Both the position numbers and the translations under genes were made by a program. This document shows, piece after piece, positions 3,743 through 27,375 of a stretch of 32,000 nucleotides of DNA (the stretch's first letter is position 1; every line of letters begins with the position of its first letter). The notes beneath the pieces were generated by a model. That model did no database searches. It saw only the letters and a program-made list of their open reading frames with translations, and was not told the origin of the DNA. The stretch is from Pyrodictium abyssi (lineage in GTDB: Archaea; Thermoproteota; Thermoprotei_A; Sulfolobales; Pyrodictiaceae), in the NCBI RefSeq assembly GCF_036323395.1, contig NZ_AP028907.1, positions 1,860,001-1,892,000 on the forward strand. Direction: 5' to 3'.

Positions 3743-4207
3743 TCACCTGTAGCTCTTCTGCCAGCGCCTCCTAGCGCTCCTCCTCATTGGCTTCTCTGGC
3801 TCTGTCTGCCTAGGATCGCCAGCAAGCATAGATCTGTCATACTCCTCGTATATCTTGCGTAGCTCTTCGCTGCCTGTGTATGCTACTAGCCCTCTTGCTA
3901 TAGCCATCCTCACTGCATCCGCCTGGCTCATGTAGCCGCCTCCGCGGACATTAACACGTATGTCTACACTGTTGGCTATCTCCTCGCCTGCTAGCAGTAG
4001 GGGCTCCATCATCTTCCAGCGAGCCATCTCTATAGGCCATATCTCAATCGGTACACCGTTTATCCATACACGGCCCTTGCCAGGCTTTATCACGGCCCTA
4101 GCTATGCTGGTCTTCCTCTTGCCGCTGGAGATGACTATCCTTATCGGCTTCTCGGCCTGCACGTAGGCGCCGAGAACCCTAGGTGTCTGGACTGTTTCGC
4201 CTGTCAA
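3743..4207 (-). CDS. rps9: 30S ribosomal protein S9 (uS9)
   Basis: 154-aa ORF with GKRKTSIARA, GGGYMSQADAVR and a C-terminal KSYR, all typical of uS9. The TTG start overlaps the rpl13 TGA stop (cTTGAc), which suggests translational coupling. Confidence 0.95.
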   Translation of the reverse strand: MTGETVQTPRVLGAYVQAEKPIRIVISSGKRKTSIARAVIKPGKGRVWINGVPIEIWPIEMARWKMMEPLLLAGEEIANSVDIRVNVRGGGYMSQADAVRMAIARGLVAYTGSEELRKIYEEYDRSMLAGDPRQTEPEKPMRRSARRRWQKSYR

Positions 4208-7792: not shown

Positions 7793-7867
7793 TGGTGCCG
7801 CCGCGGGGATTCGAACCCCGGACCGCCCGGTCTTCAGCCGGGCGCTCTCCCGCTGAGCTACGGCGGC
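7793..7867 (-). tRNA. tRNA-Phe (anticodon GAA)
   Basis: The reverse complement folds as a cloverleaf: GCCGCCG acceptor, anticodon stem CCCGG/CCGGG with loop CUGAAGA, T arm CGGGG-UUCGAAU-CCCCG, discriminator A and encoded CCA. Confidence 0.95.
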
Positions 7868-13090: not shown

Positions 13091-13215
13091 TGGCGCCGGG
13101 GGCGGGATTTGAACCCGCGCGCCCCTCCACGGGGCAGTGGGTCTCCCGGTCCTGCCTAGAGCCGGAAAAGGTCTGGTCTCGAGCCCACCGCCTTGGACCG
13201 CTCGGCCACCCCGGC
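13091..13215 (-). tRNA. tRNA-Ser (anticodon CGA) with 35-nt intron at the canonical 37/38 position
   Basis: The reverse complement has acceptor GCCGGGG/CCCCGGC, the 5' anticodon stem strand GUGGG and loop CUCGAG. A 35-nt insert follows (plus coordinates 13143-13177), then A-CCCAC, a long variable arm, T arm GCGGG-UUCAAAU-CCCGC, and G-CCA. Confidence 0.9.
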
Positions 13216-14713: not shown

Positions 14714-14773
14714 ATGATGAGGTTCGCTAGGGGTGAGCAAGCTCTGCGATGAGCATGGTATGGCGGAGGCTGA
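14714..14773 (+). ncRNA. candidate box C/D sRNA
   Basis: AUGAUGA (14714-14720), then the 12-nt GGUUCGCUAGGG, GUGA (D'-like), about 10 nt, CGAUGA (C'-like, 14747-14752), 17 nt, and CUGA (14770-14773). Total length is 60 nt, in an ORF-free spacer between tRNA-Val and ppcA. The C'-D spacing is longer than the usual 12 nt and there is no clear terminal stem. Confidence 0.3.
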
Positions 14774-25477: not shown

Positions 25478-26347
25478 ATGCATTCAGAGAGAAAACTGAA
25501 GTCTGAGGAACAAGCCATGAAGCCCCGCTGTAGCCCGGACCTGGTCCCAGCTGATAATGCTCTAACAAGAGCCCTGGAGAACGCGCTAAGAGCTGTGAAG
25601 GAGGAGTATCCCTTCCTCGACGAGAGGGTTGAGGAGATAGCTGTATCCCGGAGATTCACTCTTGTCCGGTTAGCCGGTGGAGGTATAGGCATAGCCTTCT
25701 CCGGCGACTATGAGCCACCGCCAGAGGAGCTCGTGCTCGGAGAAACTACTGCCTCTGAACTAGCCCGGTACGCATGGAGGCATCCAAGCCTCACAAGCCT
25801 CGCACTAGCTGCTGTAAATGCAGCCACTGGTATGCTCATTGAGGAAAAGCCTGGACTGAATGGACTCGTACGCGATAGAAATATCGTCGAGGTGATTAAT
25901 CCGGGCCCAGACGAGGCTATAGCCCTCGTGGGATACATACAGGGTGTTGCACGCAAGCTAGCTGCGAAAACGAGCAAGATAGTGGTTTACGAGGACAATC
26001 CTATACATCGCGCCTTAGCTCGTGAGAAAGGGTTCACCACGTATCCGGGAAGCCAGCTGCTCCTGGACGCAGACAACTATGACATAATAATAGCTACTGG
26101 AGCGAGCCTACTAGACCCCCGCATCACAGTAGTATTCACCAACGCCAAGAGGGCCCGTCTACGCGGCTTCATAGGCCCTACATCGAGCTTCCACATAGCA
26201 GCCGCCAAGCACTTAGGCGCTGACTTCATAGCAGGGATTACCATCCCCAGCAGACATAGAGACACCGTAGCGAAGCTCGTCAAGGCGGGCTACGGGTTTA
26301 AGCGCATATCACGCTTCGTGACAAAGTGGATATGGCTGAGACCATAG
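25478..26347 (+). CDS. DUF4213/DUF364-like Rossmann-type protein (putative metal-chelation family)
   Basis: 289-aa ORF. The pattern G-IGIAFS in the N-terminal half, then IALVGYIQGV...KIVVYEDNP...YDIIIATGASLLD, resembles the DUF364 family, which is frequently linked to metal transporters. The likelier start is ATG 25517, preceded by GAGGA. The assignment is from memory of family motifs only. Confidence 0.5.
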   Translation: MHSERKLKSEEQAMKPRCSPDLVPADNALTRALENALRAVKEEYPFLDERVEEIAVSRRFTLVRLAGGGIGIAFSGDYEPPPEELVLGETTASELARYAWRHPSLTSLALAAVNAATGMLIEEKPGLNGLVRDRNIVEVINPGPDEAIALVGYIQGVARKLAAKTSKIVVYEDNPIHRALAREKGFTTYPGSQLLLDADNYDIIIATGASLLDPRITVVFTNAKRARLRGFIGPTSSFHIAAAKHLGADFIAGITIPSRHRDTVAKLVKAGYGFKRISRFVTKWIWLRP

Positions 26348-26415
26348 CCTTATACAAACAAGCCCCGGTGGGAGCGAAATAGCCAATAGTATCGAGAACC
26401 AGTGAATGCCGTATA

Positions 26416-26651
26416 CTGGGGCGATGAGGAGCGGTCACGGGACGGACCGCCCTCTGACCAGGGGTGTACGGCGGGCTGGTATGAGGAGCGCAATCCTTGT
26501 CCGAAGCCCCTAGGCAGCAATATAACCGGGACCGATACTCCTTCAGAGATCCTTGTCCAGGTGGATGAGGAGTGCCGAGTTCGCTGAAGCCTCTCGCGGG
26601 CAGTACCGTACCCAGCTGATGAGGCAGTGTGGGCCTTAGAGCCGACACCCC
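26416..26651 (+). ncRNA. candidate structured RNA with four box-C/K-turn-like AUGAGG motifs and regularly spaced D-like boxes
   Basis: GC-rich, ORF-free spacer. ATGAGGAG occurs at 26424, 26481 and 26565, plus TGATGAGG at 26617. The first three are followed by CGGA (+12 nt), CCGA (+13 nt) and CTGA (+12 nt). An 11-bp helix with one bulge pairs 26461-26472 with 26641-26651. ATCCTTGTCC is repeated at 26493 and 26549. The strand is inferred from box orientation and the ends are unknown. Confidence 0.45.
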
Positions 26652-26654
26652 GAT

Positions 26655-26660
26655 AAAAAA
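26655..26660 (-). terminator. oligo-T terminator after the EMAP-domain gene
   Basis: The minus strand reads CCCTCTC-TTTTTT-AT starting 7 nt after the TAG stop at 26668-26670. Archaeal RNAP terminates at T runs. Confidence 0.5.
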
Positions 26661-26667
26661 GAGAGGG

Positions 26668-27375
26668 CTACTTCCCCTTCACGATACTATATATTATCTT
26701 CTCCACTTCGCTCCGCTCTATCCCGTTGACGGGCGGCCTCTTGCCTGCTGTGCAGCCTGACTCTATGCGTCCTCGGCTACAGTACATGGCTTCGCTTAGC
26801 TGCCCTCTTAGGTCTACTGGAGGCAGTATAGCTGCTGCGCGCAAGTCGCCTTTACGCACGTCCTTGATGTTTGTGACTATAGTGTAGGTGAACACTCCCT
26901 TGGCGCGGGTTATATACAGGTTGTCTGCGTTAGGATGCTTGGCTACGCTGAGGACTTCGACACACTCGATATCCACCGCATAAAGCGGATCGTTGTCGTC
27001 TCCAAGGCTTAGCCTGGCAGGGAGCCCGTACAGCGTCCTTATAGCGTATTTTATCTCTGCTATTGTGCGCCTAGTCTTCTGGTCTATCTGGGTCTTTTCG
27101 AGCCATTCACGTGGCAGCAGCACTGCAGCGAGCTCTCGTGCCAGCTCCTGTAGCCTCTTGGCTAGCTCGCTGTGTGCCAGCATAGTGGGCGGCATAAAGC
27201 TGAATTTTATCTGCATGAGTGCGGAGCGTGTCTGGCTGTGCAGCTCTTGTGCCTTTTTCCAGTTGACCGGTATGGGGAGCTTCTTTGCCTTTATGACTGA
27301 CTCGAGGATGCCTAGAGCGTGTTCGGCTACTAGTATTCTGTAGTCACTACGTGTGTCGCTCATTGGCTTTACCAC
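26668..27375 (-). CDS. RNA-binding protein with C-terminal tRNA-binding (EMAP/Trbp111/CsaA-type OB) domain
   Basis: 235-aa ORF. The C-terminal VEVLSVAKHPNADNLYITRAKG...KGDLRAAAILPP...LSEAMYCS matches the HPnADkL ... SeGMlcs signature of the tRNA-binding OB domain. The N-terminal approximately 130 aa are helical. This architecture matches the conserved archaeal 'predicted RNA-binding protein with C-terminal EMAP domain' group. The start is GTG 27375 or ATG 27363. Confidence 0.75.
   Translation of the reverse strand: MVKPMSDTRSDYRILVAEHALGILESVIKAKKLPIPVNWKKAQELHSQTRSALMQIKFSFMPPTMLAHSELAKRLQELARELAAVLLPREWLEKTQIDQKTRRTIAEIKYAIRTLYGLPARLSLGDDNDPLYAVDIECVEVLSVAKHPNADNLYITRAKGVFTYTIVTNIKDVRKGDLRAAAILPPVDLRGQLSEAMYCSRGRIESGCTAGKRPPVNGIERSEVEKIIYSIVKGK

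Follow-up and report, generated by a model that had tools for sequence, protein, structure and literature searches.

The 320-base spacer very probably carries two adjacent box C/D sRNA genes on the plus strand, termed here sRNA-1 and sRNA-2, as judged from their anatomy, their conservation and the complementarity of their guides. Most likely these are previously unannotated RNAs of the known box C/D type, not a new class of structured RNA, and both are most likely ordinary archaeal guides of ribose methylation, predicted to serve rRNA and perhaps tRNA, albeit longer than usual. The most plausible reading of the repeated motifs listed in a preliminary description of the region is that they form boxes C, D', C' and D of two neighbouring genes in a Pyrodictium-like crenarchaeon. 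(Coordinates refer to the window, the whole 32,000-nucleotide stretch of DNA that was analysed.)

Anatomy of the two proposed genes

The genes flanking the spacer, one for a DUF364 protein and one for a tRNA-binding-domain protein, are convergent, and a T-run read from the sequence as the terminator of the minus-strand gene is located at 26652-26667. As the preliminary description had stated, the spacer is GC-rich (0.58-0.61 compared with about 0.52 nearby) and carries repeated 8-mers on its plus strand, ATGAGGAG at 26424, 26481 and 26565 and TGATGAGG at 26617, whose occurrence is non-random. In the whole window ATGAGGAG was found five times against an expectation of 1.25; two of these copies, at 3780 and 11608, are part of long ORFs and were set aside as unrelated to the sRNAs. 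The shorter ATGAGG is not enriched overall (17 observed, 16 expected), and four same-strand copies fall within 200 nt. The reported repeat of ATCCTTGTCC at 26493 and 26549 was also confirmed; its second copy is not conserved in the relatives.

The box order C, D', C', D occurs twice in the spacer, and pairings of the K-turn type are possible throughout. The C/D pair is AUGAGGA/CCGA in both RNAs (U4-type K-turn), and the C'/D' pair is AUGAGGA/CUGA in sRNA-1 and CUGAUGA/CUGA in sRNA-2. In the K-turn of the U4 snRNA 5' stem-loop AUGAGG stands on the bulged strand with CCGA opposite, and a G-C pair replaces the U.U pair of canonical C/D motifs. U4 belongs to the eukaryotic spliceosome and is bound by 15.5K/Snu13, whereas here the same motif is a common archaeal variant of the C/D boxes. 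A search of both strands of the window with a four-box C/D'/C'/D pattern gave three matches, all of them non-coding and two of them in the spacer, compared with 0.49 +/- 0.73 in shuffled windows, the pattern having been written after the data were seen.

The comparison set comprised three Pyrodictium sequences (the window, L001 and L004) and Hyperthermus butylicus. The features of sRNA-1, which is kept as a block in all three Pyrodictium sequences and at the syntenic site of Hyperthermus, are as follows.

26377-26392, plus strand: putative TATA-like promoter element AAATAGCCAATAGTAT of sRNA-1, conserved in relatives, about 26 nt upstream of the stem
26418-26510, plus strand: sRNA-1 box C/D gene, about 93 nt between the outer ends of the terminal-stem arms, four boxes in canonical order
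26418-26422, plus strand: 5' arm of the terminal stem, GGGGC, pairing with GCCCC at 26506-26510
26424-26430, plus strand: box C, AUGAGGA, invariant in Pyrodictium, AUGUGGA in Hyperthermus
26431-26453, plus strand: C-to-D' spacer of 23 nt, the last 12 nt of which (26442-26453, ACGGACCGCCCU) are the candidate D' guide
26454-26457, plus strand: box D', CUGA, invariant in all four sequences, pairing with box C' (26481-26487)
26458-26479, plus strand: variable D'-C' loop, closed by CCAG (26458-26461) and CUGG (26476-26479)
26481-26487, plus strand: box C', AUGAGGA, invariant in Pyrodictium, GUGAGGA in Hyperthermus
26488-26500, plus strand: D guide, GCGCAAUCCUUGU, 13 nt, core UCCUUG invariant
26501-26504, plus strand: box D, CCGA, invariant in all four sequences

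Between box C and box D of sRNA-1, G26.A04 and A27.G03 can make sheared pairs, and G28-C02 and G29-C01 can pair; with the Hyperthermus C box one sheared A.G pair is lost. The terminal stem was present in the minimum free energy folds of all four homologs, with 5 bp in the window, 7 in L001, 6 in L004 and 8 in Hyperthermus, and one of its pairs reads G-C, G.U or A-U across the sequences, a compensatory change. Another such change was found in the stem closing the D'-C' loop, which is CCAC/GUGG in Hyperthermus. Inside this loop CGGCGGG is invariant and the middle varies in sequence and length (17-24 nt).

CGGA at 26443, which had been proposed as a D box, is probably not one: as a candidate for D' it was dropped in favour of the conserved CUGA at 26454 with its covarying closing stem. 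The region of this CGGA weakly resembles a Pyrococcus sR28 guide. An alternative fold of sRNA-1, in which C pairs with D' and C' with D, was rejected because its first stem fails in Hyperthermus.

For sRNA-2, whose four canonically ordered boxes are conserved in the three Pyrodictium sequences, the features are:

26518-26525, plus strand: putative TATA-like element CAATATAA of sRNA-2, CGATATAA in L004 and a weaker CAATACAG in L001
26560-26649, plus strand: sRNA-2 box C/D gene, about 90 nt
26560-26563, plus strand: 5' arm of the terminal stem, GGUG, pairing with CACC at 26646-26649
26565-26571, plus strand: box C, AUGAGGA, invariant
26572-26583, plus strand: D' guide, GUGCCGAGUUCG, 12 nt, invariant
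26584-26587, plus strand: box D', CUGA, invariant
26588-26615, plus strand: D'-C' loop, about 29 nt, with a hairpin insertion
26616-26622, plus strand: box C', CUGAUGA, invariant
26623-26641, plus strand: C'-to-D spacer, 19-21 nt, variable, with a mini-hairpin of 3-4 bp
26642-26645, plus strand: box D, CCGA, invariant, within the invariant block GCCGACAC

The terminal stem of sRNA-2 is short and not significant alone. It reads AGUG/CACU in L004, a compensatory change, and has 2 bp in L001 as read from the alignment. The D'-C' loop differs in sequence among the three genomes, and in each it folds into a hairpin of 4-6 bp. The C'-to-D spacer is probably not a guide, its sequence being unconserved among the three Pyrodictium genomes.

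An element similar to the upstream element of sRNA-1, ATAATAGC, is found upstream of a tRNA-Leu gene in the window, and Hyperthermus has TATATTAATATAAT at the matching position.

Conservation in relatives

The eight boxes and three guide stretches do not vary among the Pyrodictium genomes, in which loops and neighbouring bases diverge. This bears out the proposal that the AUGAGGA repeats are K-turn elements of the C/C' type, whose box order is conserved in relatives, and that CCGA (26501) is a genuine D box and CUGA (26584) a genuine D' box. The fourth unit, thought earlier to be without a D box, has the conserved CCGA at 26642, 19 nt after C'.

This pattern also bears on whether the boxes are decaying, non-functional remnants such as sRNA pseudogenes or MITE-like copies. 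Each RNA contains an overlong spacer, the guide is orphan or variable at two of the four positions, the presence of the RNAs among relatives is patchy, the C box of Hyperthermus is degenerate, and MITE-like elements resembling sRNAs are known in Pyrobaculum (PMC6009581). However, decay would hardly leave boxes and guides invariant where neighbouring bases diverge freely, and the stems show compensatory changes, the guide of sRNA-2 still pairs without mismatch over 10 bp with a 23S site known to be methylated, and the window holds no other copies. That these are remnants is therefore very unlikely.

In each of the three Pyrodictium genomes sRNA-1 and sRNA-2 are found together. Hyperthermus butylicus has just the first of the two at the syntenic locus, with an 8-bp terminal stem of its own and with compensatory changes in the terminal and the internal stem. 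sRNA-2 was absent from the syntenic locus in Hyperthermus and in P. occultum, and neither P. occultum nor six further Pyrodictiaceae-like loci had a spacer RNA at the syntenic site. A degenerate pattern of sRNA-1 gave no match in the JGI metagenomes, and a genome scan with the neighbouring protein yielded one relevant locus.

The preliminary description had left the choice between two tandem C/D RNAs and a single RNA of about 240 nt, and its headline was a novel structured RNA. In the latter reading one RNA of about 240-300 nt with four K-turns, closed by a helix between 26461-26472 and 26641-26651, would be an L7Ae-binding scaffold and not two methylation guides. The complementarity behind this helix, which would enclose units 2-4, is real in the window: the duplex energy is -22.8 kcal/mol, a value reached by only 0.2% of shuffled partners. 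One of its G-C pairs is A-U in both relatives, the plus strand has a somewhat better fold than shuffled sequences (z = -2.3), and the co-occurrence of the two units in Pyrodictium is also as a single RNA would have it. In L001 and L004, however, the duplex has only -12.4 and -10.8 kcal/mol, respectively, which is no better than with shuffled partners. Hyperthermus lacks units 3 and 4 and closes sRNA-1 by its own stem, a TATA-like element lies between sRNA-1 and sRNA-2, the sequence between the two is poorly conserved, and the helix would sequester box D and the terminal stem of sRNA-2. Moreover, in Ignicoccus and Methanococcus the homologous guides belong to separate sRNAs, which are about 57-75 nt long. 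Thus the comparative data favour two tandem genes, and a single large RNA is very unlikely.

The spacer might, instead, be the 3'-UTR or terminator structure of the two convergent genes. Its position and the T-run would fit, but in P. occultum and other relatives these genes are only 0-29 nt apart, and four ordered C/D boxes and an rRNA-complementary guide would be left unexplained. We regard this as extremely unlikely.

Hardly any weight can be given to a small protein encoded by the spacer. A 61-aa ORF on the plus strand (26402-26587) and a 116-aa ORF on the minus strand (26298-26648) exist in the window, but neither frame is open in L001 or L004 because the indels are not multiples of three. 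Comparison of the window with these two sequences revealed no conserved ORF on either strand of the spacer; conservation occurs in blocks, without codon periodicity, and there was no Pfam match. The small-ORF reading was therefore rejected.

Candidate guides and their predicted targets

When the spacers were compared with rRNA and tRNA, as had been suggested, two guides found a 10/10 match and the D guide of sRNA-1 found none. Positions 2-11 of the D' guide of sRNA-2 show perfect Watson-Crick pairing with the conserved 23S sequence GAACUCGGCA. The match holds in the 23S of Pyrobaculum, Thermoproteus, Sulfolobus and Ignicoccus (supplement of PMC4644070) and in the archaeal 23S of locus L139; 0.5% of permuted guides matched 23S equally well. 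Most likely, then, sRNA-2 targets GAACUCGGCA, the Pyrodictium target being taken from the rRNA of other archaea. For the C'-D spacer of sRNA-2 no target was found.

The archaeal rRNA operon of L139 was found by a search with the translated antisense ORF of Ignicoccus 23S. A metagenome scan for archaeal 23S (query AAGGAAC, the archaeal form being AGGGAAC) returned at least 120 loci; all six that were inspected were bacterial, and none had an archaeal 16S signature.

The D' guide of sRNA-1 (target form GGGCGGUCCG) pairs 10/10 with the tRNA-Phe encoded in the same window. Statistically the match is weak: among permuted guides of matched composition 1.7% also had a perfect tRNA site, and the comparison covered five guide windows. 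That this guide addresses tRNA-Phe is only suggestive. Positions 2-11 of the guide are identical in the window, L004 and Hyperthermus; in L001 there is a single C-to-U change, with which pairing to G is still possible. A further candidate site for this guide is in helix 68 of 23S, which reads CUGGCGGUCCGU in Ignicoccus and GGUACG in Pyrobaculum. The L139 operon looks Thermoproteales-like and is therefore no guide to the Pyrodictium 23S at this site.

The 23-nt C-D' spacer of sRNA-1 holds a copy of the candidate target sequence, GCGGUC, which pairs with positions 4-9 of the guide; the resulting hairpin (26431-36 with 26445-50) appears in the folds. It is conceivable, if unlikely, that sRNA-1 is a tRNA-directed guide with a built-in switch, in which the hairpin would mask the guide until the RNP or the substrate opens it and C44 of tRNA-Phe could be methylated. 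We know of no report of RNA-guided modification at tRNA position 44.

The D guide of sRNA-1 aligns with the D' guide of Ignicoccus hospitalis sR157, boxes AUGAGGA and CCGA included, and by this alignment the two are homologous. In its target form, CAAGGAU(U)GCG, it had no rRNA or tRNA site in the sequences searched.

Comparison with known archaeal sRNAs

Archaeal box C/D sRNAs, for which RNA-seq has provided a catalogue from seven archaea (Dennis et al. 2015, PMC4644070), have the same order C, D', C', D, pairs that form K-turns, terminal stems, a guide of 12-13 nt upstream of D or D', and variants with AUGAGGA and CCGA; tandem clusters and intergenic location are typical of them, as here. There is also documented precedent for C/D sRNA genes clustered in twos or threes and for sRNAs that address tRNA and have one orphan guide (PMC7994747). 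In both RNAs of the spacer box C near the 5' end and box D near the 3' end can form tandem sheared G.A pairs, a terminal stem stands beside them, and internal D' and C' boxes are present in this order and conserved. A guide complementarity of about 9-10 bp, with Watson-Crick pairing at N+5, was found for sRNA-2 with 23S and, more weakly, for sRNA-1 with tRNA-Phe. The box variants are common in the sRNAs of M. kandleri and I. hospitalis, and AUGAGGA with CCGA cannot be called unusual, since the table with the sequences of 489 archaeal C/D sRNAs identified by RNA-seq contains ATGAGGA 93 times.

The differences concern size. The two RNAs have 93 and 90 nt, outside the typical 50-70 nt, and their D'-C' loops have 23-29 nt compared with 3-10 nt. 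We treated length as typical and not as defining, because RNA-seq-identified sRNAs as long as 85-97 nt are known from M. kandleri and I. hospitalis. Two of the guide spacers are near the norm of about 12 nt (13 nt for C'-D of sRNA-1 and 12 nt for C-D' of sRNA-2), whereas the other spacer of each RNA is partly self-paired and has 23 nt and 19-21 nt, respectively. One spacer of 19-23 nt per RNA in place of about 12 nt is expected to strain the canonical RNP geometry.

Rfam models, those for C/D, H/ACA, SRP RNA and RNase P RNA included, gave no match in the spacer at gathering score. At E values up to 10 the only C/D-family match was sR28 (13 bits, E = 0.6). A chance match to CRISPR-DR28 at this threshold lies inside the DUF364 gene.

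Among the closest likenesses to sRNA-2 is Methanococcus maripaludis sR105 (MmasR105, M5 on the 23S alignment of PMC4644070), which reads AUGAUGA-GUGCCGACUUCA-CUGA. Its D' guide GUGCCGACUUCA with CUGA has the same 23S register and N+5 position as GUGCCGAGUUCG with CUGA in sRNA-2, and the single internal G-to-C difference between the guides mirrors a C-to-G difference in the organisms' own 23S (PMC4644070). sR105 belongs to another phylum, however, and has the canonical C box AUGAUGA and an unrelated second guide and loop; the likeness may stem either from convergence or from common descent. The 23S site addressed by Pca sR38, Neq sR21 and Iho sR169 is 2 nt away from that of sRNA-2 (PMC4644070).

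In Ignicoccus hospitalis, sR157 (AUGAGGA-CUCGCAUCCUUGC-CCGA; PMC4644070, additional file 1) is the counterpart of the C'-guide-D half of sRNA-1 and, like the D guide of sRNA-1, is without an annotated rRNA target. In sR103 the D guide, GAGCCGAGUUGG, precedes CCGA and is similar to the guide of sRNA-2 (PMC4644070, additional file 1); the D' guide of sR103 addresses 23S CACUGGCGGUC, which in Ignicoccus overlaps a 10-bp match to the D' guide of sRNA-1. The Ignicoccus RNAs have 68-75 nt, and in them the guides are split otherwise among the RNAs and occupy the other halves (D' versus D).

Proposed function and significance

By analogy with established archaeal C/D RNPs, each transcript would fold with C paired to D and C' paired to D', and each of these pairings would produce a K-turn or K-loop in which two G.A pairs are sheared. 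L7Ae would bind these motifs, a Nop5-fibrillarin dimer would assemble there, the stretch just upstream of D or D' would pair with the target RNA, and fibrillarin would 2'-O-methylate the target nucleotide paired to the fifth guide position. For the D' guide of sRNA-2 this would be the C marked in 23S GAAC*UCGGCA, at about E. coli C1668-1670, and the C'-D spacer of this RNA would be a variable, structured, non-guiding stretch. For the D' guide of sRNA-1, within its overlong 23-nt spacer, the best available target would be C44 of tRNA-Phe(GAA), encoded at 7793-7867. Each gene may have a TATA-like promoter of its own, or both RNAs may be processed out of a longer transcript.

The literature searched contained no description of the C/D sRNA set of Pyrodictium, a genus growing above 100 °C, to which two methylation-guide genes would thus be added. 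A Methanococcus guide addresses the 23S site predicted for sRNA-2 as well, and guides of Pyrobaculum, Nanoarchaeum and Ignicoccus point to within 2 nt of it, which supports the view that this rRNA segment is a hotspot where methylation recurs. That one spacer of each RNA is overlong and partly self-paired is a small curiosity with regard to how far C/D RNP geometry may tolerate insertions, and genes like sRNA-1 and sRNA-2 would escape C/D-box scanners set for a length of 50-70 nt and spacers of 12 nt.

Conservation of the spacer

The 320-nt spacer (26348-26667) separates two convergent genes and runs from stop codon to stop codon. Its G+C content (0.58-0.61) is above that of the flanks, as claimed in the preliminary description, and the repeats reported there were found: ATGAGGAG on the plus strand at 26424, 26481 and 26565, TGATGAGG at 26617, and ATCCTTGTCC at 26493 and 26549. 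The CNGA tetramers also lie where they had been placed. A scan of the whole spacer returned no Rfam family at threshold; with permissive settings, the sole C/D-family match was Pyrococcus sR28 (13 bits, E = 0.6).

The spacer was compared in three Pyrodictium versions that differ from one another: the window and the homologous loci L001 (here identical to L009) and L004. The neighbouring protein shares 89-94% identity with Pyrodictium delaneyi proteins and 80% with the P. occultum protein. In the alignments, sharply bounded conserved blocks are separated by freely diverging sequence. Block invariance is confined to the four AUGAGGA/UGAUGA motifs, the four CUGA/CCGA tetramers and the stretches directly upstream of three of the four tetramers. 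Such block-wise invariance at boxes and guides is characteristic of box C/D guide RNAs rather than of one large fold. The spacer most likely carries two tandem box C/D sRNA genes, sRNA-1 and sRNA-2.

Predicted features of the spacer, and its neighbours
25478-26347, plus strand: DUF364/DUF4213 gene
26418-26510, plus strand: sRNA-1, ends forming a terminal stem (GGGGC paired with GCCCC)
26424-30, plus strand: sRNA-1 box C, AUGAGGA
Between box C and D', plus strand: sRNA-1 C-D' spacer, 23 nt
26454-57, plus strand: sRNA-1 box D', CUGA
Between D' and C', plus strand: sRNA-1 D'-C' loop, closing stem CCAG/CUGG
26481-87, plus strand: sRNA-1 box C', AUGAGGA
Between C' and D, plus strand: sRNA-1 D guide GCGCAAUCCUUGU, 13 nt
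26501-04, plus strand: sRNA-1 box D, CCGA
26560-26649, plus strand: sRNA-2, ends forming a terminal stem (GGUG/CACC; AGUG/CACU in L004; only 2 bp in L001)
26565-71, plus strand: sRNA-2 box C, AUGAGGA
Between C and D', plus strand: sRNA-2 D' guide GUGCCGAGUUCG, 12 nt, invariant
26584-87, plus strand: sRNA-2 box D', CUGA
Between D' and C', plus strand: sRNA-2 D'-C' loop, about 29 nt, differing in sequence between genomes, a hairpin in each
26616-22, plus strand: sRNA-2 box C', CUGAUGA
Between C' and D, plus strand: sRNA-2 C'-D spacer, 19-21 nt, variable
26642-45, plus strand: sRNA-2 box D, CCGA, within the invariant block GCCGACAC
26668-27375, minus strand: Alpha_Helical + tRNA_bind gene

Of the structured RNA first proposed, the repeats and boxes are real, but the conserved blocks fit C/D boxes and guides, not parts of a large fold. 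For the proposed 26461-72/26641-51 helix, pairing is strong in the window and at chance level in both relatives. The second ATCCTTGTCC copy is not kept in the relatives, and the first merely coincides with the D guide and the start of box D. Coding was not supported either: the 61-aa ORF is frameshifted in the relatives, and frameshifts there also break an antisense 116-aa ORF.

A four-box search pattern, composed post hoc with the data already in view, matched only three places over both strands of the window, always in non-coding DNA (shuffled sequences, 0.49 +/- 0.73). TATA-like elements precede each unit, and comparable motifs precede tRNA genes of the window. The sRNAs may share a transcript with the DUF364 gene, or be made together as a two-gene precursor.

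A 13-nt inverted repeat (26386-26398/26678-26690, ATAGTATCGAGAA/TTCACGATACTAT, 92% complementary) flanks the pair of sRNA genes. The right arm falls inside the tRNA-binding-domain gene, at its 3' end, and in L001 the arms, judged by eye, are not complementary.

Probable structure of the sRNAs

The Hyperthermus butylicus spacer is homologous to the sRNA-1 unit alone, with an 8-bp terminal stem (AGAGGGCU/AGCCCUCU). Over four sequences, one pair of this stem varies between G-C, G.U and A-U, and the internal stem CCAG/CUGG becomes CCAC/GUGG in Hyperthermus. An alternative fold, pairing C with D' and C' with D, was rejected; its first stem is missing in Hyperthermus. The C-D' spacer of sRNA-1 includes GCGGUC, identical to a portion of the candidate target and complementary to guide positions 4-9. 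The resulting hairpin might mask the guide or be accidental; it is weakened in Hyperthermus by a U-to-A change. CGGCGGG in the D'-C' loop (26468-26474) does not vary among the four homologs, Hyperthermus included, despite the free variability expected there. The weak sR28 match spans 26420-26450 (plus strand). Nucleotides 1-12 of the sRNA-1 C-D' spacer, GCGGUCACGGGA, with CGGA after them, are similar to GCGGUUUCGGGA, the D' guide of sR28, and might reflect an ancestral guide.

The box variants are ordinary. Among 489 C/D sRNAs that RNA-seq detected in seven archaea (Dennis et al. 2015, supplement, PMC4644070), ATGAGGA occurs 93 times in the sRNA table, the D box CCGA is common in Methanopyrus kandleri and Ignicoccus hospitalis, and sRNAs of these two species reach 85-97 nt, some with D'-C' loop hairpins. 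The likeness noted earlier to the U4 K-turn (AUGAGG/CCGA) is chemically apt but no mark of unusualness.

Candidate targets

Positions 2-11 of the sRNA-2 D' guide are perfectly complementary to 23S rRNA GAACUCGGCA, which is present in Pyrobaculum, Thermoproteus, Sulfolobus and Ignicoccus (alignment, PMC4644070). It corresponds approximately to E. coli 1661-1670 in the retrieved copy, whose numbering is, by landmarks, 4-6 nt below standard. The guide was also tested on L139, a complete archaeal 16S-23S operon retrieved with a translated antisense ORF of Ignicoccus 23S as query; the match was 10/10, equalled by only 0.5% of permuted guides. Considering the conservation of this segment in every crenarchaeal sequence examined, we infer that Pyrodictium 23S rRNA would carry the target. 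Methanococcus maripaludis sR105 (GUGCCGACUUCA followed by CUGA) pairs in this register with the 23S of its own species (GAAGUCGGCA). The two 23S sequences differ, and the single internal difference between the guides therefore mirrors the rRNA difference. Pca sR38, Neq sR21 and Ignicoccus sR169 address a position 2 nt farther downstream.

For sRNA-1, the window, L004 and Hyperthermus agree at D' guide positions 2-11 (26443-26452), and a single C-to-U change in L001 would still allow pairing with G. These positions are perfectly complementary to nucleotides 41-50 (GGGCGGUCCG) of tRNA-Phe(GAA) (7793-7867, minus strand), with predicted methylation at C44 (N+5). The G+C content of this guide is very high. 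With perfect tRNA sites also found by 1.7% of composition-matched permuted guides, and with five guide windows tried, the match is only suggestive of a tRNA-Phe target. A rival 23S site pairs with positions 3-12 (10 bp) at Ignicoccus CUGGCGGUCCGU, adjoining the Ignicoccus sR103 site; L139 has GGUACG there. A second rival 23S site, GGGCGGUUUG, offers 8 Watson-Crick and 2 G.U pairs. The sRNA-1 D guide has an alignable counterpart in the D' guide of Ignicoccus sR157 (AUGAGGA-CUCGCAUCCUUGC-CCGA), an RNA that lacks an annotated rRNA target (PMC4644070); no target for the sRNA-1 D guide was found among the rRNA and tRNA sequences compared. According to a review, tRNA-directed sRNAs typically have one functional and one orphan guide (PMC7994747), a habit that sRNA-1 would fit.

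Other RNAs

The third four-box match is an independent, canonical-looking 60-nt candidate (14714-14773, plus strand) in the spacer adjoining tRNA-Val, with the order AUGAUGA-GGUUCGCUAGGG-GUGA-GCAAGCUCUGCG-AUGAGCA-UGGUAUGGCGGAGG-CUGA. Its D' guide forms 10/10 pairs with L139 23S GCCUAGCGAACG; its D guide forms 8 Watson-Crick and 2 G.U pairs about 80 nt upstream on that 23S. Rfam also reports a 122-nt tRNA (13094-13215, minus strand, 41.8 bits), presumably intron-bearing, which is absent from the ARAGORN output.

Gene callers have placed spurious antisense 'proteins' within archaeal 23S genes in public collections. L139 (ENA ERZ27262685, contig k141_231266) was found with such a translation, a usable route to archaeal rRNA operons.

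Distribution of the locus

In P. occultum just 29 nt separate the same two genes (L005 3694-3722), without an sRNA. Hyperthermus, which lacks the DUF364 gene at this locus, has a 117-nt spacer (L007 3703-3819) with the sRNA-1 homolog only. None of six more Pyrodictiaceae-like loci has the spacer; the flanking genes overlap in four, on contigs L011, L012, L136 and L137, and the neighbours differ in two. Both sRNAs would be additions to a well-known family, above its usual length and of low general interest. The patchiness of the locus among relatives fits the mobility and turnover for which C/D sRNA genes are known.
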